A program made the translations under genes and the position numbers. A stretch of DNA of 64,000 nucleotides from a virus, in IMG/VR virus record IMGVR_UViG_3300023179_000035, positions 52,395 to 116,394 of that record; one strand, 5' to 3'. Below are positions 5,464 to 53,430 of this stretch, piece after piece; the stretch's first letter is position 1; every line of letters starts with the position of its first letter. The notes beneath the pieces were generated by a model. That model made no database searches, was not told where the DNA came from, and saw only the letters and a list, made by a program, of their open reading frames with translations.

Positions 5464-5464
5464 C

Positions 5465-7208: not shown

Positions 7209-7252
7209 CCCTTTTGCTGCGTCTCCACTACTTAGTCTGACAGGGGTGACGC

Positions 7253-17955: not shown

Positions 17956-19137
17956 ATGCGACCCTCTTACTTCTACCCACAGCTCCTCGGAGCTGACCAT
18001 GGGCTTGTCGTCGACAGCGACGGCTATAGGTGGTCGTCGCGTCGGCCGCCAGAGTGCTGGGCGGTCCGAGGTGAGACACGGCACGACGAGGACGCTAACA
18101 GCCTCGACGAGCTGGCCCGCCTAGAGTCCCGTAAGCTCCAGGCGCTGCCGCCGGACCAGTTCGTCTCGTCGCTCAGGACCATCAGTGGGGACCGCCCCAT
18201 GTGGCGCTACGCCCTGCCCCAGGCTGCCTATAGGTCTTTCGTCGACAGGCTGGTCAGCGACGCCACGTCCTTCCTGGAGTCGGCCGACACGGGCTACTAC
18301 TCTGGGTGCTGGCTGCCGCACCGCAGGGTCTTCTCTTCTATGGCCAGGATGGCCGCCCCTGACCCAGGGCTCTTCTCGGCGGAGACAGACTGGGACGCCT
18401 CCTCGTTTCGTCCTCGAGGCGGCTACTGCGACAGGCTGGTCTACGACAGGTTTGGAACCCGCACGGGCAGGCTGACAGTCGCCTCAGGACCGTCCGTCCT
18501 GACCCTCAGGAAGGACCTCAGAAAATTCCTGAGGTCTCGACGTGGGGATTCCGGCGTCCTGCTGCAGGTGGATTTTTCTGCCCTGGAGGTGAGGCTCCTG
18601 GCCGCCGACGTGTCCAAGCACGTGCCGGTCGGCGACCCGTACCAGGAGCTGGCAGACGAGCTGGGCATGGACAGGCGGTCGGCCAAGCTGGCCCTCATAT
18701 CCACGACCTACGGCTCTTCAGACAGGGGCCTCGCGTCCTCCCTGGGGGTGGACCTGGCCGCCGCCCGGCGCGTCATCGAAGCGATCCACCGCAGCCACGG
18801 GGTCGAGGCCCAGGTCAGTCGCCTCAGGGCAGAGCACAGCCGCCTCGGCTACGTTCGTAACAGGTACGGCCGCAGGGTGGAGACCCCAGACGCCTCTGAC
18901 GGTCTGCTCCTCAACTCTTACCTGCAGTCTACAGGGGTGGACGTGGCCCTGTGGGGCTTCTTGCAGGTCATCGACAGGATCCCAGAGGGCCACGGCGCTC
19001 CGGTGGCCCTCATCCACGACGCTATGGTGCTGGACGTGAGCCGCGACCTCGCCGACAGGATAGGGGCCGACCTGTCAGTGACGGTGCCGGGGTACGACGG
19101 AAAGTTCCCTCTTAAAGTCGAGCCTTTGAACGTCTGA
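17956..19137 (+). CDS. Short family A DNA polymerase-like protein (polymerase domain only)
   Basis: TRTGRL; motif A QVDFSALEVRLL; motif B RRSAKLALISTTYG; motif C IHDAMVLD. 393 aa, no recognisable exonuclease domain. Confidence 0.75.
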   Translation: MRPSYFYPQLLGADHGLVVDSDGYRWSSRRPPECWAVRGETRHDEDANSLDELARLESRKLQALPPDQFVSSLRTISGDRPMWRYALPQAAYRSFVDRLVSDATSFLESADTGYYSGCWLPHRRVFSSMARMAAPDPGLFSAETDWDASSFRPRGGYCDRLVYDRFGTRTGRLTVASGPSVLTLRKDLRKFLRSRRGDSGVLLQVDFSALEVRLLAADVSKHVPVGDPYQELADELGMDRRSAKLALISTTYGSSDRGLASSLGVDLAAARRVIEAIHRSHGVEAQVSRLRAEHSRLGYVRNRYGRRVETPDASDGLLLNSYLQSTGVDVALWGFLQVIDRIPEGHGAPVALIHDAMVLDVSRDLADRIGADLSVTVPGYDGKFPLKVEPLNV

Positions 19138-26589: not shown

Positions 26590-27447
26590 ATGGCAAACTA
26601 CACCAAAGAAGAAGCAGCATCGGCATCGTTAGATTACTTTGGCGGGGACGAGCTGGCAGCCTCAGTCTTCGTCTCCAAGTACGCGCTCAGGGACGGCTCA
26701 GGCGAACTCCTAGAGAAGACGCCCGCAGACATGCACCGGCGGCTCGCCAAGGAGTTCGCCCGCATCGAGGCGAAGTACCCGAACCCCCTGGGCGAGGAGG
26801 AGATCTTCGACTACCTCTCCAAGTGGGAGATCGTCCCGCAGGGGTCTCCGATGTCTGCGATGGGCAACGACTACAAGCTACAGTCACTGTCCAACTGCTT
26901 TGTCGTCGCATCGCCCCAGGACTCCTACGGTGGCATCCTCTTCACCGACCAGGAGCAGGCCCAGATCATGAAACGTCGTGGCGGAGTCGGCTTCGACATC
27001 TCCACCATCCGCCCCAAGGGAATGCACACGGCCAATGCAGCCGGCACCACCGACGGCATCGGAGTCTTCATGGAGAGGTTCTCCAACACCTGTCGTGAGG
27101 TGGCGCAGGGCGGTCGACGCGGAGCTCTGATGTTGACTATCCATTGCTTTGAAGGATCTACATTGATTCTAACAGAATCAGGGTGGATGAAGATCGAAGA
27201 TATTGTCAATAATCAGTATAGCGGAAGGGTTTGGACGCACGAGGGCTGGAAAGAAATAGAGGCATATCAGAAGTTTGAAGACAGCGATCTGTACGAAGTT
27301 GAAACCGAAAATGGGAAAACGATTAAAGTGACAGCTGATCACAAATTTGTCGTCAGGAACGTCGACACTGGAGAAGAGTATCTCAAAGAGATCAAGTTTG
27401 TCGACGTAGAAAAAGAAGAACTAGTTTTTTACGATGTCAGTTTCTAA
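26590..27447 (+). CDS. nrdJ: Class II ribonucleotide reductase N-extein plus 100-aa split-intein N-fragment (Cys1 at 27145)
   Basis: PQGSPM, LSNCFV, GGVGFDISTIRP, QGGRRGALM, then CFEGSTLILT...VTADHKF...stop. Confidence 0.9.
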   Translation: MANYTKEEAASASLDYFGGDELAASVFVSKYALRDGSGELLEKTPADMHRRLAKEFARIEAKYPNPLGEEEIFDYLSKWEIVPQGSPMSAMGNDYKLQSLSNCFVVASPQDSYGGILFTDQEQAQIMKRRGGVGFDISTIRPKGMHTANAAGTTDGIGVFMERFSNTCREVAQGGRRGALMLTIHCFEGSTLILTESGWMKIEDIVNNQYSGRVWTHEGWKEIEAYQKFEDSDLYEVETENGKTIKVTADHKFVVRNVDTGEEYLKEIKFVDVEKEELVFYDVSF

Positions 27448-27468
27448 CCGCAACAATGCGTATATTGC

Positions 27469-28425
27469 ATGTCGATCATCTTGAAAAAAACATTTGAAAC
27501 ATTTGACAGAATTTATTTTGAACTGCCACAAGAAGTTGAATACTTCGGAAAAAAATGCTCCAAATTTTCGATGAATTCACCCGCAAATTTGATTAGAGCA
27601 CTAAGGGCAAATGGAAATCTTCTGTGTGACATTCTCGTGGGAAAAGAAGTGTATCGGGCAGATTGGCGATCGGCTAAAATAGAAAGGAAGAAAATTGTTG
27701 TCAACAAATTTGAAACGCGCGAATCGCGAGAAGCGGCAATTCAGCTTTTTAAATTGGAAAAAAAGGCAACAATGTCTTTTAGAGATTGCGCAATTTGCGG
27801 CGCTCGATGCAAAAAATCAAAAAAGATGATTGGCTGCTGTAGCGACGCATGCTTTCAAAAAAAATTAGCCTTGAGGAATGAGTCTGTTTCAAAAACACAC
27901 TGGTGCAAGTCTTCAAAATTTGAAGAGATCACTTTGAAGAGAGTCGCACGCAGAAAGAGAAATGATGAAACGCTAAGCAGGAAATATGCTGCATGGAACT
28001 CTGGGAAGACGGGCATCTATTCACTAGAAACGATCGAAAAAATCAAGGCTGCGACTAGATCGCAATTTCATAGAGAGATTTTCAAAAAAACATCAATAGA
28101 AAAACGCGTTGATGAGCTACTCAAAGAAGCTGGAATCAAATACAAGTATTCTTTCATACTGTGCGGTCGTCAATTTGATTTTGTCGTAAACGATAAATTT
28201 CTGATAGAGTTGCATGGGGATTTTTGGCATGGCAATCCAAAAATTTACGGTCCTGGCCTAAAAGATCTTAGAGATCACCAGATAATGAAGAGGCTTGACG
28301 ACAAAATTAAACAAAGAATTGCCTGCGAACAAGGCTACGTTTATGTTGAATTATGGGAGTACGACATAAACAACAACTGGGACACGGTCAAATCAAGAAT
28401 TTTGGAGATGATAAATGGAAATTAA
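27469..28425 (+). CDS. Free-standing homing endonuclease (Vsr/EDxHD-like) between the nrdJ halves
   Basis: AT-rich. Zinc-finger-like CAICG...CCSDAC; AWNSGK; TSIEK...FDF...IELHGDFWH...ELWEYD. Confidence 0.85.
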   Translation: MSIILKKTFETFDRIYFELPQEVEYFGKKCSKFSMNSPANLIRALRANGNLLCDILVGKEVYRADWRSAKIERKKIVVNKFETRESREAAIQLFKLEKKATMSFRDCAICGARCKKSKKMIGCCSDACFQKKLALRNESVSKTHWCKSSKFEEITLKRVARRKRNDETLSRKYAAWNSGKTGIYSLETIEKIKAATRSQFHREIFKKTSIEKRVDELLKEAGIKYKYSFILCGRQFDFVVNDKFLIELHGDFWHGNPKIYGPGLKDLRDHQIMKRLDDKIKQRIACEQGYVYVELWEYDINNNWDTVKSRILEMINGN

Positions 28426-31400
28426 GAGCGCGACAAAAAGCACTTCGAAGATCAAGCGTGTTAGTCCCGCGGGCAGATCAACCAGCTATGACTTTACTGT
28501 AAAAGACACGCATAGAATTCTTGCCAATGGGTTCTACACGTCGAACTGTTCCCACCCCGAGATCGAGACATTCATCAGCATCAAGCGTGACCTCAAGAAG
28601 GTGACCGGGGCCAACATCTCCATCCGCCTCACCGACGCCTTCATGCAGGCCGTCAAGGACGACTCAGAGTACACTCTCCGCTGGCCGGTGGAGTGCACGC
28701 CAGAGACAGCCAAGATCACCAAGGTGGTGAAGGCCAAGGAGGTCTGGGACCAGATCATCGATGCCGCATGGACTTCCGCGGAGCCTGGTCTTCTCTTCTG
28801 GGACACAGTTAAGAAGAACACTCCGACTGAGGCTTATGCCGATAAGGGATACAGCTCAGTCTCCACCAATCCGTGTCTTGCATATGACACACAAATTGCT
28901 GTTGCTGATGGGCGCGGCTACGTTTCTATCGGCGATCTAGCTGCTGCTGGTATGGATGTACCAGTCTACGCTCATGACAATGACACGGGCAGGATCGTTG
29001 TAAAGACTATGAGAAACCCGCGCCTTACTGGCGAGAGCATGCCTGTCTATAGAGTTACGATTGAAGGTGGTCACACGTTCAGGGCGACCAGCAACCACAC
29101 GATGATACTCCGCGATGGAACGCGGAAGACTGTGCAGGACCTGCAGCCGGGAGATCAACTATGGGTCGCCCAAAAGGCTCACGCCAAATTTAATGAAGTT
29201 CTGCCTGGCCTCCAAGCGACACAATCGCAGGATTATATCTGGGTCAAAGATTGCAACTCTAAGTCGTGGAAGGCTGAACACAGAATTCTTTGGGAAGCAC
29301 ACCATGACCGAAAGTTGGGTCTGCATGAGGTTATCCACCATGTAGATTTCAACGCGTCCAACAACGCAGTTGACAACCTGCTCTTGATGAGCAAAGAAGA
29401 TCATGACGCCTACCATGCATCTTTAATCAAGGGCAAGAACAATCCGATCTTCAAGATCAAGTCAGATCCTGCAAGATTTGCTGAGTACTCGGCAAAGATG
29501 TCTCAGTCTACTGGCGGGCTGAACAACCCAAGAGCTTACGACATTAGCAACGAAGAGCTGATGAAACACATTGAAGCTCTTGTCACATCTCTTGGGCGTC
29601 GCCCAAGCGGCGGCGACTGGGAGAGCTATGCTGCGCAAAACTCATTGCCTAAGTTTTTGAACTCATTTAGGCTAGGTGGCAAGAAGTTCTCACAGGTCGC
29701 TTCCGAGCTTTCTGATAAGCTTGGTATTGCGAATGACCTAACGTCAGCTGACCCGCGAATGGCGGCTAGAGCCCTTGAGGCGCAAGAGTCTGGATACTCA
29801 TGGCGTATCTTGAACAACGAACTAGAAGTCGAGAAGAAGTGTGAGTGGTGCGAGGCTAACTTCTGGAGTGCATACGATAGGAGAGAGATTTCTTTCTGCG
29901 GTCACTCTTGCTCAAATTATTACGCAAACCGTAAGGCTGGCAAGAATGCTGCTCGTGCCGCTTCTCTTCAAAAGATGCACGAAGAGAGGGGCACGAAGAA
30001 CAGAGTCGAACAGCTAAATGTCTACACCAAGCTGCGGTTTGAGCTTGGCAGAGACCCTCTGCTCGATGAGTGGGCAGACGCCTGCAAGTCGAACGAACTA
30101 CCCGTAAGGCTGGGGACGAAGAACGGCTTTGCTTCTTGGAAGCAGCTGAAATCTGAGGCTTCGCTTCACAACCACCGTGTTGTGTCTGTCGAATTTGCTG
30201 GACACGAAGACGTGTACAACGGGACAGTGGATGACGTTCACACGCTACTGTTCAAAGTTGGACAAGAAAGTGTCAAAGGCTTACGCAACCCTATCGACGT
30301 AATAATCGCAAGTGAACAATGCGGAGAGATCGTCCTGTCTCCATACGACTCCTGCAGGCTCCTCCTCCTCAATCTCAGTAAGTTTGTCAATGACCCCTTC
30401 ACACCCTCTGCTAAGTTCGACCACGAGCGTTTCAGCAAGGCAGTGGTAGTAGCACAGCGCCTCATGGACGACCTCGTCGACCTGGAGCTAGAGGCCGTCG
30501 ACAAGATCGTCGCCAAGGTGAAGGATGATCCAGAGACGGAAGAGGTGAAGCGGTCTGAGGTCGGCCTGTGGACCAAGATCCGTGAGGCCGCGACCAACGG
30601 CCGCAGGACGGGGCTCGGAGTCACCGCTCTCGGCGATGCCCTGGCCTTCCTCAACGTCCGCTATGGCTCCCAGGAGTCGGTCGACAAGACAGAGGAGATC
30701 TACAAGGCTCTGGAGACGGGAGCCTACACCTCCACCATCACCATGGCGTCAGAGCGCGGGTCGTTCCCAGCCTTCTCACACGCAGCGGAGGCTTCTCATC
30801 CCTTCGTCCAGAAGGTGGTGGCAGCACTACCCCAGGACGTCCAGGACCTCTACAAGAAGGTCGGCCGTCGCAACATCGCACTCACCACGACAGCTCCTGC
30901 AGGATCAGTGTCCTGCCTCACTCAGACGACCAGCGGCATTGAGCCTGCCTTCCTCGTCTCCTATACCCGTCGCAAGAAGCTCACCTCCACCGACGTCACC
31001 TCACGGGTCGACTTCGTGGATCAGCTCGGCGACAAGTGGCAGGAGTACAAGGTCTACCACCACGGCTACAAGAAGTGGATGGAGGTCACAGGCAAGGGCG
31101 ACGTGGTGGAGGAGTCTCCTTACTGGAAGGCGACGTCCAACGACGTGGACTGGCCCATGTCTGTCAAGCTCCAGGCTGCAGCCCAGAAGTGGGTGTGTCA
31201 CTCCCTGTCCAAGACCTGCAACCTTCCAGCCGACACGACTCGTGAGACTGTCGCAGACGTCTACATGTCGGCGTGGGAGAGCGGCTGCAAGGGATTCACA
31301 GTATACCGAGACGGCTGCCGCAGCGGCGTCCTGGTGGCCGAGGAGCCGAAGGCTGAGAAGAACGTTGACGTCGGGCAGCCCACGTCCATCCTAGAAAATC

Positions 31401-31951
31401 ACGCGCCCAAGAGGCCCAAGGAACTGCCGTGCGACATACACAGAATAAACGTGAAGGGCTCTGGAGGCCCGGAGAGCTATCTCGTCTTGGTAGGCAAGCT
31501 CGATGGGATGCCATACGAGGTCTTCTGTGGGCTGTCGTCCCACGTCGAGGTACCCAAGAAGGTGAAGAGCGGCGTCCTCATCAAGAACGGCAAGAAGGAC
31601 GGCCTGGCGACCTACAACCTCCAGATACCGCTAGGCGACGACGACTGCCTCCTCTTTAAGGACGTCGTCAACCTCTTCGACAACCCCAACTACGGCTCGT
31701 TCACCAGGACAATATCGCTGGCCCTCCGCCACGGCGTCCCCGTTTCGTACGTCTGTGAACAGCTCCAAAAGGACAAGCACAGCGACATGCAGAGCTTCTC
31801 AAGGGTCTTGTCTCGAGTCCTAAAGGGGTACATCCCAGACGGCACCAAGTCAGCTTCAGACAAGAAGTGCGGCAGCTGCGGCCTCGAGGGGCTCGTCTAC
31901 AAGGAAGGGTGCGTCTCTTGCATCAACTGCGGCGCCAGCCGCTGCGCGTAA
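28415..31951 (+). CDS. nrdJ: 44-aa split-intein C-fragment plus NrdJ C-extein containing a second, contiguous intein
   Basis: YDFTVKDTHRILANGFYTSN/CSHPEI. Then ANISI, EPGLLF, STNP[intein]CGE, GLGVTALGD, TTAPAGS, KGFTVYRDG and a C-terminal Zn ribbon. Confidence 0.9.
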   Translation: MEIKSATKSTSKIKRVSPAGRSTSYDFTVKDTHRILANGFYTSNCSHPEIETFISIKRDLKKVTGANISIRLTDAFMQAVKDDSEYTLRWPVECTPETAKITKVVKAKEVWDQIIDAAWTSAEPGLLFWDTVKKNTPTEAYADKGYSSVSTNPCLAYDTQIAVADGRGYVSIGDLAAAGMDVPVYAHDNDTGRIVVKTMRNPRLTGESMPVYRVTIEGGHTFRATSNHTMILRDGTRKTVQDLQPGDQLWVAQKAHAKFNEVLPGLQATQSQDYIWVKDCNSKSWKAEHRILWEAHHDRKLGLHEVIHHVDFNASNNAVDNLLLMSKEDHDAYHASLIKGKNNPIFKIKSDPARFAEYSAKMSQSTGGLNNPRAYDISNEELMKHIEALVTSLGRRPSGGDWESYAAQNSLPKFLNSFRLGGKKFSQVASELSDKLGIANDLTSADPRMAARALEAQESGYSWRILNNELEVEKKCEWCEANFWSAYDRREISFCGHSCSNYYANRKAGKNAARAASLQKMHEERGTKNRVEQLNVYTKLRFELGRDPLLDEWADACKSNELPVRLGTKNGFASWKQLKSEASLHNHRVVSVEFAGHEDVYNGTVDDVHTLLFKVGQESVKGLRNPIDVIIASEQCGEIVLSPYDSCRLLLLNLSKFVNDPFTPSAKFDHERFSKAVVVAQRLMDDLVDLELEAVDKIVAKVKDDPETEEVKRSEVGLWTKIREAATNGRRTGLGVTALGDALAFLNVRYGSQESVDKTEEIYKALETGAYTSTITMASERGSFPAFSHAAEASHPFVQKVVAALPQDVQDLYKKVGRRNIALTTTAPAGSVSCLTQTTSGIEPAFLVSYTRRKKLTSTDVTSRVDFVDQLGDKWQEYKVYHHGYKKWMEVTGKGDVVEESPYWKATSNDVDWPMSVKLQAAAQKWVCHSLSKTCNLPADTTRETVADVYMSAWESGCKGFTVYRDGCRSGVLVAEEPKAEKNVDVGQPTSILENHAPKRPKELPCDIHRINVKGSGGPESYLVLVGKLDGMPYEVFCGLSSHVEVPKKVKSGVLIKNGKKDGLATYNLQIPLGDDDCLLFKDVVNLFDNPNYGSFTRTISLALRHGVPVSYVCEQLQKDKHSDMQSFSRVLSRVLKGYIPDGTKSASDKKCGSCGLEGLVYKEGCVSCINCGASRCA
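28874..30319 (+). mobile_element. Contiguous 482-aa intein with HNH endonuclease at the RNR NP/CGE active-site loop, ending in Gln
   Basis: STNP|CLAYDTQIAV...ATSNH...EHR...IHHVDFNASNNAVDNLLLM..H...EDVYNGTVDDVH...SEQ|CGE. Confidence 0.9.
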
Positions 31952-43872: not shown

Positions 43873-44450
43873 TCTTACAGCGTATCAACACCCGCGGCGG
43901 AGGGGTCCTGTTAAAGTTCCCATGCAACGAGCCGAGGCCGGGGCAGTGCGTGGCCTTTGACGGCAAGTACTTCGTCATCGCGCACCACTTCAACGGCGTC
44001 GGCGCCGTCTTCACCAAGCCCAAGTCTGCCATCGACCTCCCACATGGGACCCACGTCGACCTATCGAAGCCAGTCGGCAAGGGCTTCAATGTGGAGGCTA
44101 TCGAATTGACGCCTGTCATCGTTACGGGTGGCACGGGTTTTGCTGCAGGCCTATCGCTCCTGAGACATTTTTACGAGTCGAAGCAGGACTTTCGAATGGT
44201 AGCCTACACCCGCCAGCCTTCGCAAGTCGATGACGTCACAGGCCTGCTTGCTGTACCTCGTGATGACAGGCTCCAAACGTGGAACACGCAACTCCTAGGA
44301 CGCCCTGCCGCTCCACTGGACCCATTGAATATTTCAATCACAGCCTCAACACCTGTCTTCTTTGCAGGACCAAAAGAGCTCCACGAAGCGCTAAGAACAG
44401 ACCTTGATAAAAGAGGGCTGAGTGACGTTACAATTCGACTCAATTACTGA
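43869..44450 (+). CDS. Ferredoxin-NADP reductase superfamily / flavin reductase-like protein
   Basis: PRPGQ, PVGKGF, VTGGTGFA, FFAGP, and a C-terminal aromatic residue (RLNY). Confidence 0.65.
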   Translation: MILQRINTRGGGVLLKFPCNEPRPGQCVAFDGKYFVIAHHFNGVGAVFTKPKSAIDLPHGTHVDLSKPVGKGFNVEAIELTPVIVTGGTGFAAGLSLLRHFYESKQDFRMVAYTRQPSQVDDVTGLLAVPRDDRLQTWNTQLLGRPAAPLDPLNISITASTPVFFAGPKELHEALRTDLDKRGLSDVTIRLNY

Positions 44451-44453
44451 AAG

Positions 44454-44465
44454 GTACCTAGGTAC
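44454..44465. promoter_or_regulatory. Perfect 12-bp palindrome, candidate operator upstream of the RHH/GIY-YIG cassette
   Basis: GTACCTAGGTAC, about 30 nt upstream of the RHH ATG. Confidence 0.4.
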
Positions 44466-44494
44466 TTTTGAACCTGAAGGAGATACGTATAGCC

Positions 44495-44662
44495 ATGAGA
44501 CAAACGAAGGTCACGATCGACGAAGAGACTCACAAGCAGCTAAAGGTGTACTGTGCACAGCACGGTCTACTGATGAGCCAATTCCTCTCGGAGATCATTC
44601 GAGAGAGGATTGGCAACAATGTGGACAGTAAAGACAGTACAGGAAATTCCGACAAACCCTAA
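44495..44662 (+). CDS. Ribbon-helix-helix DNA-binding protein
   Basis: TKVTIDEETHKQLKVYCAQHGLLMSQFLSEIIRERI. Confidence 0.7.
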   Translation: MRQTKVTIDEETHKQLKVYCAQHGLLMSQFLSEIIRERIGNNVDSKDSTGNSDKP

Positions 44663-45788
44663 GATGATGGGGATCTATCAGATCACCAATACAGTCAATG
44701 GAAAGAAGTACGTTGGGAAGAGCAAGAACATACGATTGCGATGGATGGGGCACATCGGTGCCAATCGAAAAGGGAAAGCTGTCAACAAGCATTTCCAGCA
44801 TGCTTGGGACAAATACGGGGAGGACAACTTCACTTTTCACATTCTCGAGATTGTCACTGATGAGTCCCAGCTTGGTATGAGAGAGAAACTTCTTGTAGAA
44901 GAGCACAATCCTGAATACAATGTTTCTATTGTTGATGATGGTCAGTGGACCATGACCTCTGAAGAATGTGAGAAACGAAGACAGAGAAGGCTTCAAGCAG
45001 ATCCGCAGTGGAACAAAAGAATAGGTGAAGCTCTTCGAGGTAAGAAGAAGAGCGAAGAACATACACGTAAGATGATCATGGGTCTCACGGGCAGGAAAAT
45101 GACCCCTGAACAGATTGAGAAGATTCGAAAATCTTCAACTGGCAGATCAGTTCCTGATTATGCGAGAAAGAAAATTGCAGAGAAGGCTAAGGGAAACCAA
45201 CGCTGGAAATTTAGGACTGACGCCTGGCGTGAGAAGGTCAGAGCCGCTGTCAAAAGAACACATGAGTTAATGCGACAACGTCGTCAAGCTAAGAAAGAAA
45301 AGGAAGAAATGATGAAAAATTCAAATGGTTTTGGTCGTAAGCTAGCATGCTATTTAGCGTCAGGTTGGTTCTCACCTGACCAGGATAAGCAGCTGACCAA
45401 GCTCGAGGCAGTCTTCGACAGCCGAGCCGACTGGATCAACCTGGCGTCACCCCGTCGAATCTTCGTGTGTCCGCCGGATGCTTCGCAGGAGGTGCAAGAC
45501 AACGTCTTCAGCGGCAACGTGAAGCACATCAAGGAGGCTGACTTCACTCTCGTCAACACCACCTATCGTGACATCGGCACGATCTGGGAGGCCGGCGCAG
45601 CTTACGCGTACGGCACGAAGATCGTTTACTTCTGCGAAAATCTGCCACCTGGCGCCAAGTTTAATCTTATGCTCAGTAGAAGCGGCATTAAAGTCTGCAC
45701 CACCTTCGAGCAGCTTGAAGACTATCTGGAGCGCTGTAAGGCCGCTGGCGAGATGCTCTACGAGCCATACGACAAAGAGATTGAGTAA
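44610..45788 (+). CDS. GIY-YIG homing endonuclease (NUMOD3-like repeats) fused in frame to a nucleoside 2-deoxyribosyltransferase-family domain (probable own start at 45309)
   Basis: GIYQITNTVNGKKYVG...R...E...YN and GKKKSEEH repeats, then YLASGWFS...DIGTIWEAGAAYA...FNLML. Confidence 0.8.
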   Translation: MATMWTVKTVQEIPTNPKMMGIYQITNTVNGKKYVGKSKNIRLRWMGHIGANRKGKAVNKHFQHAWDKYGEDNFTFHILEIVTDESQLGMREKLLVEEHNPEYNVSIVDDGQWTMTSEECEKRRQRRLQADPQWNKRIGEALRGKKKSEEHTRKMIMGLTGRKMTPEQIEKIRKSSTGRSVPDYARKKIAEKAKGNQRWKFRTDAWREKVRAAVKRTHELMRQRRQAKKEKEEMMKNSNGFGRKLACYLASGWFSPDQDKQLTKLEAVFDSRADWINLASPRRIFVCPPDASQEVQDNVFSGNVKHIKEADFTLVNTTYRDIGTIWEAGAAYAYGTKIVYFCENLPPGAKFNLMLSRSGIKVCTTFEQLEDYLERCKAAGEMLYEPYDKEIE

Positions 45789-45862
45789 GTGAAAAACTCG
45801 GCATGAGTAGTGTACCATCAGGATGGCCCTCAAAAAGCCATCCTGATTTCATTTGGAAAACA

Positions 45863-46732
45863 ATGAGCCAAATCCTATTGCCTCCCTCACGGTTTGTTAG
45901 CCTACACTCGCATAGTCACTTCAGTACTTATGACGGGGTCGGTTACCCAGCCGACCACGCTAACTTTGCACTAAAGAATGGCTTAGACGCTTGGTCCCTG
46001 ACAGACCATGGCAATGGCAACGGCCTTGCCCACGCTCACGCTCACGCCAAGAAGTTGAAGTCCAAAGGGGCGAAGTTCCGCCAGCTCTACGGCGTCGAGT
46101 TCTATTTCGTCCCTGACCTAGCCGACTGGAAGGTCCGCTATGACCTAGCCAAGAAAGAGAAGGGGCAGGAGGGCGACAAGAAGGCTGAAGACGAGGAGGA
46201 GGCAGGCCTGGTCGTAGAGGATGCAGACGAGACGCGGTCGGACAACGACAGGTTCGTAGACATCAACAAGCGTTACCACCTCGTCGTTGTCGCCAAGAAT
46301 AGGGTCGGCCTCTCTAACCTCTTTACGCTGGTCAAGAAGAGCTACGTCGACGGCTTCTATAAGTTCCCACGCATTGACTTTAACCTGCTGAAGCAGCACG
46401 GCGAAGGGTTGGTGGTTTCAACTGCGTGTCTTACAGGTGATGCGGAACTCGTGACCGATGGGGGAACAGAGACACTTCTCAGCGTTATCGAGAGATATAA
46501 GCAGGGAGAAAATCCTGTTGTTCTTTCTTTCAATGAATCGAATAAGGAACTTCAATTCAAGCGAGTTTTGTGGGGAGACAAAACGAGAACTTCCGCTAAG
46601 ATCGTCAAAGTAAAAACTGCAGATGGTAAAGAAGTTAGACTCACTCCCGACCATCAGGTCCTAACAAACAAGGGGTGGCTTCGAGCAGATGAGCTAAAGA
46701 GAAATATGCCAGTCAAGATTGTTTCTTTGTGA
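45863..46732 (+). CDS. dnaE: DnaE fragment 1 (PHP domain) plus 101-aa split-intein N-fragment (Cys1 at 46427)
   Basis: LHSHSHFSTYDG, TDHGN, GVEFY, HLVVVAKN, PRID, VSTA|CLTGDAELV...LTPDH...stop. Confidence 0.92.
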   Translation: MSQILLPPSRFVSLHSHSHFSTYDGVGYPADHANFALKNGLDAWSLTDHGNGNGLAHAHAHAKKLKSKGAKFRQLYGVEFYFVPDLADWKVRYDLAKKEKGQEGDKKAEDEEEAGLVVEDADETRSDNDRFVDINKRYHLVVVAKNRVGLSNLFTLVKKSYVDGFYKFPRIDFNLLKQHGEGLVVSTACLTGDAELVTDGGTETLLSVIERYKQGENPVVLSFNESNKELQFKRVLWGDKTRTSAKIVKVKTADGKEVRLTPDHQVLTNKGWLRADELKRNMPVKIVSL

Positions 46733-46737
46733 AACAA

Positions 46738-46772
46738 CTACCGCCTAGACATCCATATTGCTTAGGAGGTAG
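46738..46772 (+). promoter_or_regulatory. Hairpin sequestering the SD of the endonuclease gene
   Basis: CTACC-G-CCTAG pairs with TTAGG-A-GGTAG, covering AGGAGG. ATG at 46779. Confidence 0.6.
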
Positions 46773-46778
46773 CCGTTA

Positions 46779-47738
46779 ATGAATTCAGCAAGAAACGCCT
46801 ATGAAAAAAGACTTGAAACTTTCAAACAAGTAATCACGACATGGAAATCAGAAAAAGAAATTTTCGATTTGTACGAAAGTTGTTGTACACCTCGCCAAGT
46901 CATCTCTTTGTTTCGACATCAAATTGTTGATGATTTCAATGATCTGCAGAAAAGAAACGTTTTGCTTCTGAACGATAATCGTCTAGTAAAAATGCTAAGG
47001 GACATAGTTCCATACAGTAAAGAACAACACGTTCGGCATCTCGCAATGCCGCAATGGTGGAAGATACGTTTTCGTCATCTTGATAAGTCAGAAGAAGAAG
47101 TTAAACAACTCGCTGTCGCACAGCAGCGAGAATGGGCATCAAATACTCACGCTGTTAGAAAAAAGAAAGCTCATTATAATCCTAAACAAACAACTCAACA
47201 CTGGATTGATTTGGGATTTTCACCTGCCGACGCCCAACTAAAGGCCAGAGAGTTCAAAAGATCATGTTCACCTTTCACTGTTGAGTTTTGGAAACGTAAG
47301 GGTTTCTCTGAAGAACAGGCTCAAGAAAAGGCAACAGCACTGCACGTACGAGGAGGGACAGCGACATGTGCTGCTCAGGACAAAAAGTTTGTATCTAAAC
47401 TCGAGCAAGATATTTTTGAACAACTGCAATCTAGAATTTCTCGTTCTCTTAAGCAACAGCACGCCATTAACTGGCAATTTGTTTATGACATCTGCGATCT
47501 TGAAAAGAAGAAGATCATTGAGGTTAATGGAACATATTGGCACGCAGACTCTCGTGTATATCCAAAAGACGACATGATAGTATGCAATGGTCTGACAGCA
47601 GCCGCAGTGCATGCTCGAGATATTGAGAAATCTGAATACGCCAAAAACTTTGGATATCAAGTGCTGGTAATTTGGGAAATCGATTGGCACGCCGACAAAG
47701 AATTGTCACTTCAAAAAATGATTGAGTTTCTTTCATAA
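46779..47738 (+). CDS. Free-standing homing endonuclease (Vsr/EDxHD-like) between dnaE fragments 1 and 2
   Basis: AT-rich. Repeated W...GFS.E.A units; SKLEQ...YDI...IIEVNGTYWH...RD..K...GYQVLVIWE. Confidence 0.85.
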   Translation: MNSARNAYEKRLETFKQVITTWKSEKEIFDLYESCCTPRQVISLFRHQIVDDFNDLQKRNVLLLNDNRLVKMLRDIVPYSKEQHVRHLAMPQWWKIRFRHLDKSEEEVKQLAVAQQREWASNTHAVRKKKAHYNPKQTTQHWIDLGFSPADAQLKAREFKRSCSPFTVEFWKRKGFSEEQAQEKATALHVRGGTATCAAQDKKFVSKLEQDIFEQLQSRISRSLKQQHAINWQFVYDICDLEKKKIIEVNGTYWHADSRVYPKDDMIVCNGLTAAAVHARDIEKSEYAKNFGYQVLVIWEIDWHADKELSLQKMIEFLS

Positions 47739-47745
47739 GAGAAAT

Positions 47746-50211
47746 ATGACAAACCACAAGTTCATTGACGTTATTGAAGTAGAAGATCTTGATTACACAG
47801 AAGATGTATATGATATCACCGTCGAGGACAACCATAATTTTTTTGCAAATGGCATGGTTGTTCATAACTGCGTCGGGGGATACCCCTCCGGGCTAATTTA
47901 TGGCGAGTTCGTAGACAAGAAGTTCGCCGAGCTGACGCCTGAGCTCGTCGATGACGACGCCGTCAGGAGCAGGATCCGTAATCGCCTAGAGAACATGGTC
48001 GACAGATTCGTAGACTGCGTCGGGCACGAGAACTTCTTCCTTGAGCTGCAGTTCAACAAGCTGTCTGCCCAGGACCTGACCAACAGGATGCTGATCGAGA
48101 CGTCCAGGGCGACTGGGTGCAGGTTGATCTCTACGGCAGACTCACACTACCCGGAGCCAGAGCTGTGGGAGGCTCGAGAGATCTACCGCCAGCTACAGCC
48201 GGGGCGGATGAAGATTGGCTCAGAGCCAAAGCCACTTCCAAAGAAGGAGGAGCTGAAGGCAGAGCTCTACCCCAAGAACGCCCAGCAGATGTGGGACGAG
48301 TACCTGTCTCGCAGGGAGCTGTTCCTTTGGTACCAGGGCACCGAGGACATCGTCAGGACGTCCATGGAAAATGGCCACGATGTGGCGTGGGACCTGTGCG
48401 AGGAGATCTGGTTCGACCCTTCTGCGAAGCTTCCGACGTTTAGCACCCCTGAGAAGACGGGGTTCTCCCAGCTCGTCGACCTCGTCAAAGAGGGCCTCAG
48501 GGCGGAGGGCCTAGACCAGAAGCCAGAGTACGTCGCTCGTGCCAAGATGGAGCTAGACGACATCAAGTACTTGAAGTCTGAGGACTACTTCCTGACACTC
48601 CAGAAGGTCTTTAAGCTCGCAGAGAATAGGACCCTTCCAGGCAGCGGCCGAGGCTCAGGAGCCGGGTCCCTGGTCAACTACCTCCTCGGTATCACTCACG
48701 TTGACCCGCTGAAGTACGACTTGCTGTGGGAGAGGTTCATGGGCCGCCACAGGGCTGGATTTCCGGATATCGATACTGACGTCGGCGATCGTGACAAGCT
48801 GATCGAGGCGGCTCGTGAGATCTTTGGCAATGACGCGGTGGTGCCTGTGTCCAACTTCAACACGCTGAAGCTAAAGTCGCTCGTCAAGGACGTCTCTAAG
48901 TTCTACGGCGTGCCATTCGAGGAGGTCAACGCCATGACTGGGCCGCTGGAGCGCGAGGTCGAGATGAAGTCACGCGACCCGAACATGGAGAAGTCCATGT
49001 TCGTCCTGAAGCACGAGGACTGCCTGGAGCACTCCGAGAACTACAGGAACTTCATGGCGAAGTACCCGCACGTGGAGGAGAAGATCCGGACGCTGTTCAT
49101 GATGAACAGGTCAGTCGGCCGCCACGCTGGAGGCGTCCTTATCTGCCCACAGCTGGAGCAGCACATGCCTCTCATCACTGTTCGCGGAGAGCTCCAGACC
49201 CCGTGGACAGAGGGTGTCAACATCCGAAACCTAGAGGAGAACGGATTCCTCAAGTTCGACTTCCTCGGCATCAAGCAGATGAAGATGGTGGAGGACTGCA
49301 TCGCCAGGATCCTCCGCAGAGAGCTGGGCCACGAGCCCAAGTTCGAGGACATCAAGAAGTTCTATGACGACAAGCTCAACTGCCGGTACGTCGAGCCCAG
49401 CGACGATCGCGTCTTCGAACACGTCTATCGCAACGACAGGTGGACGGGCATCTTCCAGTTCACCAGCGACGGAGCCAGGAAGTTCTGCCACGAGGTCCAG
49501 CCCTCCTCCATCGAGGACATCGGTGTCGTCACAGCCATCTACCGCCCGGGCCCCCTAAAGGCAAACGTCCACAAGAAGTACGTCGCTGCGAAGCAGGACG
49601 CCTCTAAGGCCCGGTATGACCACCCTGTCATCAAAGATGTCCTGGGCACCACGTACGGCTTCATCGCCTTCCAGGAACAGTTCATGATGCTGGCCCAGAA
49701 GCTGGCCGGCTTCTCGCCGGGCGACTCCGACAAGATGCGAAAGACGCTGGTCAAGAAGGACCTGACCAGCCTCGGTAAGAAGTCAGAAGAGAAAGAGTCC
49801 CTGGAGAAGAAGTTCGTCGAGGGCTGCGTCGAGGTCAGTGGGATGGACCGCGACAAGGCCAAGGAGCTATTCGATAAGATCTCATTCTTCTCACTCTACG
49901 GATTTAACAAAAGTTTGTACTTTCTTCAGAAGGTGAATATTATTAGAGATGGAAATGAGATGGACCTGGCGATCGAAGACGTCATGCCGGGAGACATGGT
50001 CATGACCCGCGACGAGAAGACTGGCGAAAACCTTAGGACTGCCGTCGTCGAAAAGCACGACCACGGCGTTCTCGACCTCTTTGAGATCACACTTGACACA
50101 GGAGAAAAAGTGACATGCACGTTGGACCACAAGTTCAGGACAAAATGCGGCAGGATGCTGCCCCTGAAGACGATTGTCCAGATGGACCTGGAAATCGTGA
50201 CATCAAGATGA
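47746..50211 (+). CDS. dnaE: DnaE fragment 2: 41-aa intein C-fragment, polymerase core, then 99-aa intein N-fragment (Ser1 at 49912)
   Basis: VYDITVEDNHNFFANGMVVHN|CVGG; GRGSGAGSLV, PDIDTD, HAGG, KFDFLG, GIFQF, YRPGP, FQEQ; YGFNK|SLYFLQKV...CTLDHKF. Confidence 0.92.
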   Translation: MTNHKFIDVIEVEDLDYTEDVYDITVEDNHNFFANGMVVHNCVGGYPSGLIYGEFVDKKFAELTPELVDDDAVRSRIRNRLENMVDRFVDCVGHENFFLELQFNKLSAQDLTNRMLIETSRATGCRLISTADSHYPEPELWEAREIYRQLQPGRMKIGSEPKPLPKKEELKAELYPKNAQQMWDEYLSRRELFLWYQGTEDIVRTSMENGHDVAWDLCEEIWFDPSAKLPTFSTPEKTGFSQLVDLVKEGLRAEGLDQKPEYVARAKMELDDIKYLKSEDYFLTLQKVFKLAENRTLPGSGRGSGAGSLVNYLLGITHVDPLKYDLLWERFMGRHRAGFPDIDTDVGDRDKLIEAAREIFGNDAVVPVSNFNTLKLKSLVKDVSKFYGVPFEEVNAMTGPLEREVEMKSRDPNMEKSMFVLKHEDCLEHSENYRNFMAKYPHVEEKIRTLFMMNRSVGRHAGGVLICPQLEQHMPLITVRGELQTPWTEGVNIRNLEENGFLKFDFLGIKQMKMVEDCIARILRRELGHEPKFEDIKKFYDDKLNCRYVEPSDDRVFEHVYRNDRWTGIFQFTSDGARKFCHEVQPSSIEDIGVVTAIYRPGPLKANVHKKYVAAKQDASKARYDHPVIKDVLGTTYGFIAFQEQFMMLAQKLAGFSPGDSDKMRKTLVKKDLTSLGKKSEEKESLEKKFVEGCVEVSGMDRDKAKELFDKISFFSLYGFNKSLYFLQKVNIIRDGNEMDLAIEDVMPGDMVMTRDEKTGENLRTAVVEKHDHGVLDLFEITLDTGEKVTCTLDHKFRTKCGRMLPLKTIVQMDLEIVTSR

Positions 50212-51203
50212 ATTATACGTATCGTTGCACTCGATGCGGACGTAATGTGGGGCACGTGAAAAATGGCATCTCTGTGTCTGAGCATTTGGCCCTGTGTTTC
50301 CCGCAAGGTGTAAGTGGGATCCACTACGTGCAATGCGCTCTGTGCGACTTCGTTGGGATGAAGATCACGCAGCACGTGAGGCTTGTGCACGGCGTCTCTA
50401 AGGAAGACTATCAGTCGAAGCACGGTCGCCTTATCTGCGAAAACTCCTCACGCAACTATGGGTCGACAGGTAACTACGATTGGATCAAGAGGGCCCGAGA
50501 AAGGGGCGAAGACCTGACAGAGAGATTCGCCGCCACCGGACCAGCGAAGTCCGCCGGAATCCTCGCCTCCCAGAAGGCGATCGAGGCGAGAAGAAAGAAT
50601 ATGTCTGACTTGAACAGGAGGCCTGAAAGTCGACTGCGGTCGTCAGAGGTCGCCAAAGAGACTTCAAGACGCCCTGAGATCATCGCTCGTCGAACTCATA
50701 ACCTGAGGATGTGGCGCCAACAGAACTTTGAAGACTTTTACGAGAAATGTGTGATGCCGATGATCGGCGCTCTTGAAAAGTTGAATGGTGACGTCCGCCA
50801 GACAGCGCCTGAAAAAGTTCTACAAATCCTCCTGTCGGGAATCGAAGGATACGACTTCAAATATTCTCAGTGCGTCAAGTCCAATCAATTCTCGTCTCTC
50901 TCGAAGAGAAAACAAGTCGACTTTGGGGACAAGTCTCGTCGCGTGTATGTCGAGTTCGATGGAGTTCGTCACTTCAGGGACTTCAATGGGACTCTCAAGA
51001 AAACGAGAGAGCAAGATGAGGCCCTTGACAGGCACATTATCGAACATGGGTGGACCCTGCTTAGAATAAGCTATGACCAGTTCGTTGGTAAAAAATTCTC
51101 AGAAACGTGTGTCAAGAGTTTGTTTGATATTTTGAGCGACCCAAAACCAGGTGTCTTTAGGATTGGAAAGGAATATGAGGTAAAGCGTGGCGAAGATACT
51201 TGA
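50208..51203 (+). CDS. Free-standing homing endonuclease (zinc fingers plus Vsr/EDxHD-like domain) between dnaE fragments 2 and 3
   Basis: CTRC, CALC...HVRLVH; TAPEK...VDF...VEFDGVRH...D...GWTLLRI. ATGA overlap with the upstream stop. Confidence 0.85.
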   Translation: MNYTYRCTRCGRNVGHVKNGISVSEHLALCFPQGVSGIHYVQCALCDFVGMKITQHVRLVHGVSKEDYQSKHGRLICENSSRNYGSTGNYDWIKRARERGEDLTERFAATGPAKSAGILASQKAIEARRKNMSDLNRRPESRLRSSEVAKETSRRPEIIARRTHNLRMWRQQNFEDFYEKCVMPMIGALEKLNGDVRQTAPEKVLQILLSGIEGYDFKYSQCVKSNQFSSLSKRKQVDFGDKSRRVYVEFDGVRHFRDFNGTLKKTREQDEALDRHIIEHGWTLLRISYDQFVGKKFSETCVKSLFDILSDPKPGVFRIGKEYEVKRGEDT

Positions 51204-52227
51204 TATCAAGTACGTAGGTAAACACCAGACCTACGACCTGGAGGTCGACCACCCCGACCACCAGTTCTACCTGGCCAATGGGGTGCTGACGTCCAACTCC
51301 CACGCCATCGCCTACGCAATCGACTCCTACTACGGCGCCTGGCTCATGACCCACTACGAGACAGACTGGCTGGCCACCTGCCTCCAGTCTGAGAACGACA
51401 TCGAGGGCCTGGCCGTCCTCTTCTCCGAGATCAAGGGCATGGGCTACGAGATCGCCCCGCCGGACGTCAACTACTCGTCGTCGACGTGGACCTGGTCCGA
51501 GGAGCTGCGGGCTTTCGTCCCGCCCCTGTCTTCCCTGAAGGGGGTGGGGGACTCTGCCGTGGAAGAGATCCTCGCAAATCGTCCATACAGGTCCGTGGAC
51601 GACATGCTGTGGAACGATGACGGGTCCTGGCGCCACTCAAAGTTCAACAAGAGGGCGCTGGAGGCTCTCATCAAGATGAACGCCCTCACCTCTCTGGGCC
51701 TCGTCGGCGAGGGCAAGGTCTTTGACAACTACAGGCAGGCCTACCACGTCATCGTGGAAAATAACGACGCCATCAAGAAGACCCTGAAGCGGGACCCCTT
51801 CGCTGGTAGGAAGCGGTTCTATGAGCTGGCGCAGGCCTGCAAGGACATGCCGGACTGGACCCTCGCCGAGAAGGTAGAGCACACTGTGCAGTGCTCTGGC
51901 TCGGCTAACGTCGCCACCATCGTCCGGCCAGAGCTGCTGGCCAAGCTCCGCGACAAGGGCGTCAGGTCCATCGACGACTGGGACGGCAAGGACATCTACT
52001 GGTTCCTGGCCAAGTCTGCCACACCGAAGGTGACCAAGAACGGCAAGCAGTACCTGATGCTGGAGGCGCTTGGTCCCACTGGAAAGCTGACACGTCTCAT
52101 GTGCTGGGGCTGGGACGGCAAGAGACAGCTGCAGCAGTACTGCCTGTGCCTCTCGGAGGTGGACAAGAACGACTTCGGGGCCAGCACCAACATGTGGAAG
52201 CTCCGTGAGATTGACCTAGAAAATTGA
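51187..52227 (+). CDS. dnaE: DnaE fragment 3: 37-aa intein C-fragment plus HhH/OB-fold region
   Basis: TYDLEVDHPDHQFYLANGVLTSN|SHAIAY; PPDVNYS; LKGVG; TKNGKQY. GAGG SD. Confidence 0.92.
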   Translation: MAKILDIKYVGKHQTYDLEVDHPDHQFYLANGVLTSNSHAIAYAIDSYYGAWLMTHYETDWLATCLQSENDIEGLAVLFSEIKGMGYEIAPPDVNYSSSTWTWSEELRAFVPPLSSLKGVGDSAVEEILANRPYRSVDDMLWNDDGSWRHSKFNKRALEALIKMNALTSLGLVGEGKVFDNYRQAYHVIVENNDAIKKTLKRDPFAGRKRFYELAQACKDMPDWTLAEKVEHTVQCSGSANVATIVRPELLAKLRDKGVRSIDDWDGKDIYWFLAKSATPKVTKNGKQYLMLEALGPTGKLTRLMCWGWDGKRQLQQYCLCLSEVDKNDFGASTNMWKLREIDLEN

Positions 52228-52237
52228 GGAGAAGCCG

Positions 52238-52438
52238 ATGCCGACGTACGAGTACAAGTGCCTGTGCTGTAGCGGTGAGTTCGAGGTGAGCCAGTCGATC
52301 AAGGCCGAGCCGGGAGCTAACTGCCCTAGCTGTCTCGTCTGGACGACGACCCGCCTCATCTCGAAGGGAACCACTTTCACGCTCAAGGGGGGCGGCTGGG
52401 CAGCTGACAACTACGGCCCTTCTAAGCCACCTGGCTGA
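52238..52438 (+). CDS. FmdB-like zinc-ribbon protein
   Basis: MPTYEYKC..C...CPSC...RLIS...FTLKGGGW...Y. GAGGAG SD. Confidence 0.85.
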   Translation: MPTYEYKCLCCSGEFEVSQSIKAEPGANCPSCLVWTTTRLISKGTTFTLKGGGWAADNYGPSKPPG

Positions 52439-52464
52439 CCCTAGGAATATTAGAAGGGCGCTCA

Positions 52465-52771
52465 ATGAGGTCTCTTGGACTGCTCTCCCTCCTAATTCTC
52501 GTAGGCCTAGGAGGGGGGCTGCATTACAAAGCTCATCAACCGTGGCGTGGCCTCCGTTTGGGTCACTATCTTTCCGAGCCTGGCGTCAGGGCTCCTGTGG
52601 GGATTGACGTCGCGGACGTCGACCAACCTGAGCCTGCTGCCTGCCGTCTTTGACGTGCTGTACACAGCGTCTTACGTGGCGGCCTTCGTCCTGCTAGGAG
52701 ACAGGCTGACGCCGCTGCAGGTGACGGGTTTCCTGGTGTCCCTTACGGGCGTCGCTATGATGTCGAAATAG
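52465..52771 (+). pseudogene. Small multi-pass membrane protein (SMR/EamA-like) split by a frameshift in a G6 run
   Basis: Removing one G from 52513-52518 joins MRSLGLLSLLILVGLGGG to CITKLINRGVASVW...LLGDRLTPLQVTGFLVSLTGVAMMSK. Confidence 0.55.
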
Positions 52772-52779
52772 TTAAGGGC

Positions 52780-53430
52780 ATGAAGATAAGAGTAGGCGAG
52801 CTGAGAAGGCTGGTACGAGAGGCCATGAAGCACCCGAGCGAGATGCAGGGGTTGGCTCTCTTCGTTCCTGATGACGCCATGTTTGTGCTGTACGCGCCTA
52901 GTGACCTGAAGAAAGAGCTGAGGTTCCACGCCTCCCGTAAGATAATGGCGCCAGAAAGGTCTGCCACATTCGCTTTCACCAGCTGTGTTGTGGCTGCTTT
53001 GGAGCTTGAACCCTTTGGATCAGACTCACTGAGAGTATCGCACGTTTGGTCTAGCGAGCGTGGCTACGGATCTTTCTTGTACGACGTAGCCATGAAGCTG
53101 ACCGGGAAGTCCCTCGTCCGCGGCGAGAAGACGTCTTCATCAGCGATGAATGTGTGGAACAAGTACGCTGGTCGGTCTGACGTAGTTGTCTCCGGAGATG
53201 ATGACACTTTGCAAGTCACGCCTGGCCCTGGGTTTAGGGCAGACTTTAACCTAGATGGCTTGCTGACTGCACATCAAGACTGTATGGATTTTCTCTTGAA
53301 AAGTGCAGAGGTCGCTGGCATGCTGTCTTCCGCCCTGGGAAAGGATGTCCTCACCCAGGGCGATATAGAGAATTTCTTCAAGAGGAAATGTTCCTCTCTT
53401 CTCGTGGACGCTGTCAAGACAGGTTACTGA
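52780..53430 (+). CDS. Hypothetical protein with ELRRLVRE leader and GNAT-like core
   Basis: VSHVWSSERGYGSFLYD...SSSAMNVW resembles acetyl-CoA-binding motif A. Confidence 0.5.
   Translation: MKIRVGELRRLVREAMKHPSEMQGLALFVPDDAMFVLYAPSDLKKELRFHASRKIMAPERSATFAFTSCVVAALELEPFGSDSLRVSHVWSSERGYGSFLYDVAMKLTGKSLVRGEKTSSSAMNVWNKYAGRSDVVVSGDDDTLQVTPGPGFRADFNLDGLLTAHQDCMDFLLKSAEVAGMLSSALGKDVLTQGDIENFFKRKCSSLLVDAVKTGY

Follow-up and report, generated by a model that had tools for sequence, protein, structure and literature searches.

Here we describe a dnaE gene of a large, uncultured freshwater (lake-water) phage that is encoded in three separate pieces. The gene lies in a stretch of 64,000 nucleotides (nt), hereafter the window, which corresponds to positions 52,395 to 116,394 of the IMG/VR virus record IMGVR_UViG_3300023179_000035. 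The window is the last 64 kilobases (kb) of this 116-kb record, and the record is itself a fragment, with a CheckV completeness of 32%. At positions 45863-52227 of the window there are five co-oriented and consecutive open reading frames (ORFs), consisting of three dnaE pieces and of one endonuclease gene in each of the two gaps between them. Halves of two inteins are found at the four inner ends of the dnaE pieces. Very probably, this is a PolIII-alpha gene that was fractured twice, by two independent mobile elements, and its three precursor proteins would be trans-spliced to form one polymerase.

Results

The dnaE gene can be described as composed of three exteins, and all features given here are on the plus strand. 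Piece 1 (45863-46732) begins with ATG and consists of extein 1 followed by the N-terminal half of the first intein, IntN1. Extein 1 (45863-46426, 188 amino acids (aa)) comprises the PHP domain's N-terminal portion (Pfam PHP, 6.9e-26) and ends in GLVVSTA. A second open ATG is found upstream, at 45803; the start at 45863 agrees with the N-termini of unsplit relatives. Piece 2 (47746-50211), which also begins with ATG, is made of the C-terminal half of the first intein (IntC1), extein 2 and the N-terminal half of the second intein (IntN2). Extein 2 (47869-49911, 681 aa, from CVGG to YGFNK) contains the remaining part of the PHP domain, the palm, with the motifs PDIDTD and FDFLG, and the fingers (DNA_pol3_alpha, 1.4e-52; finger, 1.2e-37). 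Piece 3 (51187-52227) has a GTG start and consists of the C-terminal half of the second intein (IntC2) and of extein 3 (51298-52227, 309 aa and a stop codon), which begins with SHAIAY and comprises the HhH domain and the C-terminal part (HHH_6, 1.8e-12). In Pfam, piece 1 matches PHP and Intein_splicing, piece 2 matches the C end of the Intein_splicing profile, DNA_pol3_alpha and finger, and piece 3 matches HHH_6, so that the order of the Pfam and PHROGs matches across the three pieces is PHP, palm, fingers and HhH. The 1190 positions of PHROG 405 (DNA polymerase) are covered at 39-203, 192-794 and 793-1040 by pieces 1, 2 and 3, respectively. A first-pass annotation of the window had proposed a dnaE in three pieces with two split inteins, and this division is confirmed to the residue by the ORFs, by Pfam and by PHROG 405.

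Unsplit relatives are continuous across both junctions. The unsplit protein P0006, which is 89% identical over extein 2, reads through as ...VVSTACVGG... and ...YGFNKSHAIAY..., and unsplit viral loci have the three extein segments directly next to each other, without a base between them, as at 5446-6000, 6001-8043 and 8044-8961 in locus L001. This continuity fixes the splice sites and rules out chance or an artefact. Furthermore, since the segments abut, removing exactly the intein codons restores the ancestral reading, and the restored junctions STA-CVGG and GFNK-SHA that had been predicted are those read straight through in P0006. The joined chain of 188 + 681 + 309 = 1178 aa is collinear with unsplit relatives of 1174-1183 aa. 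An assembly artefact was also considered and excluded: contigs of run X1, from the likely source sample, cover 45572-47805 and 49822-53000 without differences, and the same middle piece is found, from another source and 84% identical, in protein cluster P0002.

IntN1 (46427-46732) has 101 aa and a stop codon, with Cys1 encoded at 46427 and TPDH as block B. IntC1 (47746-47868) has 41 aa, ends in VVHN and matches positions 118-155 of the 155 positions of Pfam Intein_splicing. The guanine plus cytosine (GC) content is 0.435 in IntN1 and 0.35 in IntC1. The +1 residue is the Cys encoded at 47869 (CVGG), and the class-1 residues of intein 1, C1, TPDH, HN and C+1, are all present. The best solved relative of IntN1 is the NrdJ-1 intein (8ubs, E 1.2e-9). 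Cys1 and the T..H of block B are kept in 4 of 4 aligned copies of IntN1, and HN/C (the slash marks a splice junction here and below) is kept in 8 of 8 proteins related to IntC1.

The pairing of the halves was also modelled by complex prediction, in which IntC1 was offered with IntN1 and IntN2 both present, with own alignments and three controls. Binding of IntC1 scored 0.55, compared with 0.08 for the best of the three controls, which lends weak support to a complex. Of 80 solved complexes, 58 reach the mark that this score passes, as do 2 of 110 mismatched pairs; at a score of 0.60 or less, it is reached by only 7 of the 80 solved complexes and by both of the passing mismatches. The runs share at least 79% of their contacts, and the predicted local distance difference test (pLDDT) value of the partner is at least 62. 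Since similar complexes have already been solved, the pass may be due to memory. With IntN1 replaced and IntN2 kept, the control scored 0.05, a low score that, by the rule of the tool, is not evidence that IntC1 fails to bind IntN2.

IntN2 (49912-50211) has 99 aa and a stop codon, with Ser1 encoded at 49912 and TLDH as block B. IntC2 (51187-51297) has 37 aa, a GTG start and the C-terminal end LTSN. The +1 residue is the Ser encoded at 51298 (SHAIAY), and the class-1 residues S1, TLDH, SN and S+1 are again all present; the half lengths and residues given for both inteins in the first-pass annotation (IntN of 101 and 99 aa with Cys1 and Ser1, IntC of 41 and 37 aa with HN/C and SN/S) can all be read in the sequence. 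The best solved relatives of IntN2 are the cyanobacterial DnaE inteins (7qil, 8.6e-9; Npu, 4lx3_A, 5.7e-8), and IntC2 matches the Npu DnaE IntC (4lx3_B, 1.9e-4). The SN/SH of IntC2 is kept in 14 of 14 related loci, of which extein 3 is just 22-52% identical. The penultimate Ser is also found in the Npu DnaE IntC aligned here and, as the cyanobacterial DnaE split inteins also end in SN, it is typical of that family. By these similarities, intein 2 can be described as a Ser1/Ser+1 relative of the cyanobacterial (Npu-type) DnaE split inteins. IntN1 shares 29% identity with IntN2 and IntC1 36% with IntC2, and the net charges of the N- and C-terminal halves are +3 and -9 in pair 1, and -5 and -2 in pair 2. 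The low mutual identity and the different nearest solved relatives (NrdJ-1 versus Npu and other cyanobacterial DnaE inteins) assign the two inteins to different lineages.

Residue 1 of the intein that follows GFNK was examined in 25 proteins and is Ser in 17, Thr in 3, Cys in 4 and Asp in 1. The Cys rows (P0012, P0014, P0091 and P0109) and the Asp row (P0106) appear, on reading the printed sequences, to be Cys1-type inteins of another family; in P0106, an offset of the alignment hides the start of the intein, which directly follows ..VY. This second, unrelated Cys1 family of these five proteins is located in the same fingers motif (GFCK/CLHGD.., CFNK/CIQGD..). In P0091 and P0109 the reading is YCFNx, the Gly of the others being replaced by Cys. 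Within five residues of the fingers motif, insertions are found at no fewer than two or three neighbouring points, and the start of the P0106 intein is at what we take to be the position of the cyanobacterial split.

In each gap there is an endonuclease gene, as the first-pass annotation had noted; both genes are free-standing and encode putative homing endonucleases, which profile and fold searches describe as Vsr-like. HEG1 (homing endonuclease gene 1, 46779-47738, 319 aa, GC 0.398), similar to Vsr and to I-Bth0305I, is preceded by a 46-nt leader with a hairpin at 46738-46772 that pairs with the AGGAGG ribosome-binding site. The fold of 46715-46800 has -22.9 kcal/mol, with a z-score of -3.75 and 1 of 200 shuffles as good. 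HEG1 has a weak Pfam match to MTES_1575 (0.0011) and matches to PHROGs 22677, 559 and 3339. A profile made of HEG1 and five relatives (A2) matches the catalytic domain of I-Bth0305I (3r3p, 1.9e-7) and Vsr (1cw0, 1.3e-6), and the residues D237, E248, W254, H255 and D281, invariant in 6 of 6 members of the family, align to both. Viral contigs scanned with HEG1 as the only query gave no relative.

HEG2 (50208-51203, 331 aa) is composed of an N-terminal zinc finger and a C-terminal Vsr-like nuclease fold. It has no leader, as its ATG overlaps the stop codon of piece 2 (ATGA), and its 3' end overlaps IntC2 by 17 nt. HEG2 has no Pfam match and matches PHROG 559 at 6e-8, and the N-terminal part of its profile A1, made of four copies, matches the Ros zinc finger (2jsp, 1.5e-4). 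The AlphaFold2 model of HEG2 has a mean pLDDT of 61.6, with 80-90 at residues ~200-320, the nuclease domain; in Foldseek its top match is Vsr (1cw0, E 1.9e-4, template modelling score normalised by the target 0.60), and I-Bth0305I is found at rank 23. In the family, 4 of 4 members have D238, E249, D251, H255 and D270. In 14 of the 15 loci found with the family, among them some with a dnaE that is just 25-42% identical, relatives of HEG2 lie in dnaE with IntN2 before and IntC2 after them. As single sequences, HEG1 and HEG2 gave nothing useful against the PDB; the matches come from the profiles and from the fold search. The two families match each other weakly in hhalign (probability 8.9%, E 0.0037). 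HEG1 and HEG2 are predicted to be Vsr-like homing endonucleases.

The three-piece form of dnaE is not unique to this phage. A search of 5.8 billion proteins was made, and the best 120 clusters were classified against nine segments: 90 are unsplit (extein 1, extein 2, extein 3), 17 consist of extein 1, extein 2 and IntN2, 6 of IntC1, extein 2 and IntN2, 2 of IntC1, extein 2 and extein 3, and 5 are other. The 6 clusters with the middle piece are the window's own, P0002, P0046, P0049, P0050 and P0075. Viral loci were collected with extein 2 (66) and with the HEG2 family (15), which with the own-record locus L067 makes 82, and 78 remain after removal of L067 and three duplicates; 77 of these have extein matches and 61 have the whole gene. 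In these 61 loci, dnaE consists of one ORF in 43, two in 14, three in 2 (L056, L078), four in 1 (L059) and five in 1 (L052), with Hint halves at the piece ends in these last four loci. In nature, all four states of the two sites were found: both empty, only the first occupied, only the second occupied, and both occupied. The statement of the first-pass annotation that such a polymerase is at least very rare is too strong, given 6 of the best 120 clusters with the same middle piece and dnaE genes of three, four and five pieces on related viral contigs. Among cultured phages, all tblastn matches of piece 2 are below 60% identity, those listed being 27-31%.

Further arrangements can be noticed in these relatives. 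The five ORFs of L052 (4802-11596) and the four ORFs of L059 (2662-9569) have endonuclease genes in only some of the gaps, and two adjacent pieces of L052 both match extein 2 residues ~249-334. A third frequent insertion point is found in the palm, near extein 2 residue 290-300 (L039, L046, L051, L055, L058, L075 and L056), and it has its own endonuclease family with a Cys-rich motif at the N-terminus.

Presence and absence of element 1 were observed in nature. Element 1 (46427-47868) has a GC content of 0.35-0.44 inside exteins of 0.55-0.61, and element 2 of ~0.50. Logan contigs of four freshwater runs were mapped to 45000-53000, X1 being the likely source sample and X2, X3 and X5 belonging to two studies other than that of the likely source. 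In X2, X3 and X5, one contig each has 46407 and 47869 separated by just 19 other letters; exactly the 1442 bases of element 1 are absent, and the allele translates as LVVFSA/CVGG. Compared with the window, one of these empty-site contigs has 1 different letter in 106 to the left and 4 in 882 to the right. In the 19 bases immediately left of site 1, only 11 are the same in the empty-site allele and in the window; this mismatch would look like a co-conversion tract or an altered endonuclease target. HEG2 is nearly unchanged in the same runs (2 other letters in 407 and 0 in 292) and, with element 1 missing and HEG2 kept, the phage of those runs has a two-piece dnaE. No empty-site joint was seen in the Logan contigs of the window's own sample. 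The protein clusters point in the same direction for both elements: in P0060, IntC1 is 93% identical on an extein that is just 57% identical and, conversely, in P0003 the extein is 90% identical and IntN2 just 55%. Judged by these patterns, both elements look mobile.

Loose contig ends in runs X1, X2 and X5 represent further alleles in the same lakes. These include a different IntN2 variant from 49923 onward in the likely source sample and a different sequence upstream of 51223 (loose contig end; region 51223-51310). One contig translates as GYGFNASHAV and represents some relative with site 2 uninterrupted.

Discussion

In the mechanism that we propose, the five ORFs would most likely be on one transcript, from which three precursors would be translated, extein 1-IntN1, IntC1-extein 2-IntN2 and IntC2-extein 3. 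IntN1 would pair with IntC1 and IntN2 with IntC2, and each pair would fold to a Hint domain and perform class-1 trans-splicing, by means of Cys1, Asn41 and Cys+1 in intein 1 and of Ser1, Asn37 and Ser+1 in intein 2. The two reactions would form the peptide bonds of the two restored junctions and give the 1178-aa polymerase. The endonucleases would serve the elements and not the polymerase: in co-infection, they would cut empty alleles, into which the element would be copied. Because a cross-reaction would circularise or concatenate the middle piece, or join extein 1 to extein 3, the two pairs would have to be orthogonal. A consensus scan of 45500-52600 found 2 sites like promoters and 9 like terminators, against 3.7 and 6.4 expected, respectively, and none of either kind on the plus strand between two ORFs, a weak result that is compatible with a single transcript and says no more.

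Several points weigh against this mechanism. Ligation is predicted from the sequence, and none of the sequencing runs listed for the locus is RNA. Orthogonality is suggested by the above logic and by the divergence of the pairs. Ribosome-binding sites are weak ahead of piece 1 and of piece 2. Compared with Cys, the combination of Ser1/Ser+1 and a penultimate Ser has a slower chemistry, and no characterisation of it was found for the intein-2 family, in which three clusters (P0003, P0008 and P0047, GFNK/TCHFEE..) have Thr as residue 1; Thr would be an unusual first nucleophile, if such inteins splice. Furthermore, a small ORF at 17956-19134 is similar to family-A polymerases (DNA_pol_A-like) and, as the record is a 32% fragment, a second polymerase may be encoded elsewhere in the genome.

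The chemistry of intein 2 bears on whether the pieces are ligated at all. They could assemble without ligation, with one or both inteins dead and serving only as dimerisation domains of a three-subunit polymerase, as mobile-element-derived domains hold together the fragmented NrdA of a T4-like phage in the available part of its description (PMC3045599). The Ser nucleophiles with the penultimate Ser of intein 2 and the Thr1 of three relatives would fit such weak chemistry. However, the penultimate Ser occurs in the Npu DnaE IntC too, and every class-1 residue is present in both inteins and is kept across exteins that are 22-57% identical. Dimerisation alone would not preserve position 1, the T..H of block B, the terminal Asn and the +1 nucleophile, and it is this conservation of all catalytic residues that makes assembly by dead inteins unlikely. 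That dnaE is a decaying gene, wrecked by selfish elements in a phage that replicates with another polymerase, is quite improbable. The record is about one third of a genome, so another polymerase may exist, and the DNA_pol_A-like ORF could be counted in favour; the sole DNA_pol3_alpha match of the record is, however, the one described here. All three exteins are open, 60-89% identical to those of the unsplit L001 and have their Pfam domains at full strength, and the same split with open frames is found in P0002 (84% identical) and in four other clusters (53-57%). The exteins have open frames and are conserved in several lineages with the split, which disfavours decay.

Another possibility in principle is that group I or group II introns that carry the endonuclease genes take the gaps out of the RNA, since Vsr-like phage homing endonucleases such as I-Bth0305I occur in group I introns (PMC3239194, in the part available). 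This is hardly credible for the locus described here. No Rfam family, group I intron included, matched in 44000-53000 at E<=1 with permissive filters, in agreement with the first-pass annotation, which had seen no group I core in the gaps. Each gap is bordered by in-frame Hint halves with their own stop and start codons, and the unsplit reading is obtained to the residue by cutting out the intein codons and not an RNA-defined segment. Trans-splicing of three precursors by two split inteins is retained as the probable reading and is compared below with known systems.

Fractured genes of environmental phages were described by Dassa et al. in 2009 (PMC2677866), whose article, in the part available, includes three DnaE loci with three different sites; in one of them, DnaE-1, the C-part of an additional intein is in frame. 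DnaE-1 is probably a glimpse of the same multi-split arrangement on a short scaffold. That part of the article also gives, as features of fractured genes, a non-coding leader of 27-51 nt, a hairpin over the ribosome-binding site of the endonuclease gene and an endonuclease 3' end that overlaps IntC. The order of the fractured genes, N-part with IntN, endonuclease gene, IntC with C-part, all on one strand, is found here at both junctions, with a Vsr-like endonuclease gene, and the DnaE host, the phage context, the 46-nt leader and hairpin of HEG1 and the 3' overlap of HEG2 with IntC2 are shared. The endonucleases there are, as far as the same portion of the text extends, Vsr-like or GIY-YIG; here both are Vsr-like. 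In contrast with the fractured genes of that text, the layout is found here twice in one gene, with a middle piece that begins with IntC and ends with IntN, and two trans-splicing reactions would be needed; furthermore, HEG2 has no leader. As for the novelty that the first-pass annotation could only suggest, the kind was already known, from the fractured DnaE of 2009. The doubled form is another matter: no complete three-piece gene is described in the available part of PMC2677866, and no description of a natural complete gene needing two or more split inteins was found in a full-text literature search that had most subscription journals and supplements outside it.

Compared with the cyanobacterial split DnaE inteins (Ssp, Npu), intein 2 shares the host protein, the fingers motif and halves of ~100 and 36 aa that end in ...SN, and both halves are similar in sequence (5.7e-8 and 1.9e-4, given above). 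The nucleophiles are different, Cys1/Cys+1 there and Ser1/Ser+1 at GFNK/SH here. The cyanobacterial junction is, we assume, ..Y/CFNKSH, which would place the site of intein 2 four residues downstream. Furthermore, the cyanobacterial halves are encoded at distant loci, whereas here they are ~1 kb apart around an endonuclease gene, with a second split intein in the same gene. The dnaE of Trichodesmium erythraeum is said, in work of 2003 attributed to Liu and Yang, to have several inteins of which only one is split, making a two-piece gene. Intein 1 is of the type of NrdJ-1 and gp41-1, known from fractured genes: it shares Cys1, the HN end and an acidic IntC (-9), and IntN1 is closest to NrdJ-1. 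It differs by its host gene and site, the PHP domain of DnaE at STA/CVGG, and by Cys at +1.

The same logic has been used in engineering. Ligation of three to six fragments with orthogonal inteins from fractured genes is established, in the available part of Pinto et al. 2020 (PMC7090010), and the corresponding part of a 2026 paper (PMC13014065) cites tandem trans-splicing with two cysteine-less inteins and counts only four usable cysteine-less split inteins. In both the engineered and the present arrangement, the middle fragment has the IntC of one pair and the IntN of the other, and no cross-reaction is allowed; here, however, the arrangement is natural, the enzyme concerned is essential, and each pair is linked with a homing endonuclease gene of its own.

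More tentatively, and with somewhat less than even confidence, we join these observations into a wider reading. Both inteins would be active and orthogonal, and replication would need two simultaneous trans-splicing reactions. The invasion by element 1 would still be in progress, because the empty-site allele is found on a gene ~99% identical in other lakes. Intein 2 would be a cysteine-independent sister, linked to an endonuclease, of the cyanobacterial DnaE split inteins, which are very fast, and would represent a fractured state from which a dispersed split could arise. The clade, in which dnaE has up to five pieces, would constitute a natural collection of orthogonal split inteins that have co-evolved.

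If trans-splicing takes place as proposed, an essential replicative enzyme tolerates two independent selfish insertions, and up to four in relatives, each of which brings its own repair at the protein level. Nature would already be using the middle-fragment design of engineers, with IntC at the head and IntN at the tail. A natural, putatively orthogonal pair of inteins on one chain is one source of interest, and the locus and its relatives offer candidate orthogonal pairs, one of them a Ser1/Ser+1 relative of the Npu DnaE intein. Moreover, the empty-site allele in other lake metagenomes makes a natural system in which the homing of inteins and endonucleases can be followed in wild phage populations.

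Neighbouring genes

The genes that surround dnaE form a phage module of replication and nucleotide metabolism, with a DnaB-like helicase, a 5'-3' exonuclease, a ribonucleotide reductase, a ThyX-like protein and a nucleotidase. In the protein search, the window's own protein was also found on a 230-kb contig.

The ribonucleotide reductase gene of the same window, at 26590-31948, is also fractured. Its first ORF (26590-27444) has a C-terminal IntN (..LTIH/CFEGS), the gap is filled by a Vsr-like endonuclease gene (27469-28422; Pfam Vsr, 1.4e-5), and the last ORF (28415-31948) has an IntC at its head (..YTSN/CSHPEI). Within this last ORF there is additionally a contiguous intein (Intein_splicing stretch 169-609), which contains an HNH domain (HNH_3 289-331). 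Directly upstream of dnaE, an ORF of 392 aa (44610-45788) comprises a GIY-YIG domain (residues 19-104) and a nucleoside 2-deoxyribosyltransferase domain (residues 248-352); it is either an endonuclease gene that reads into an enzyme gene without a stop codon, or a true fusion.

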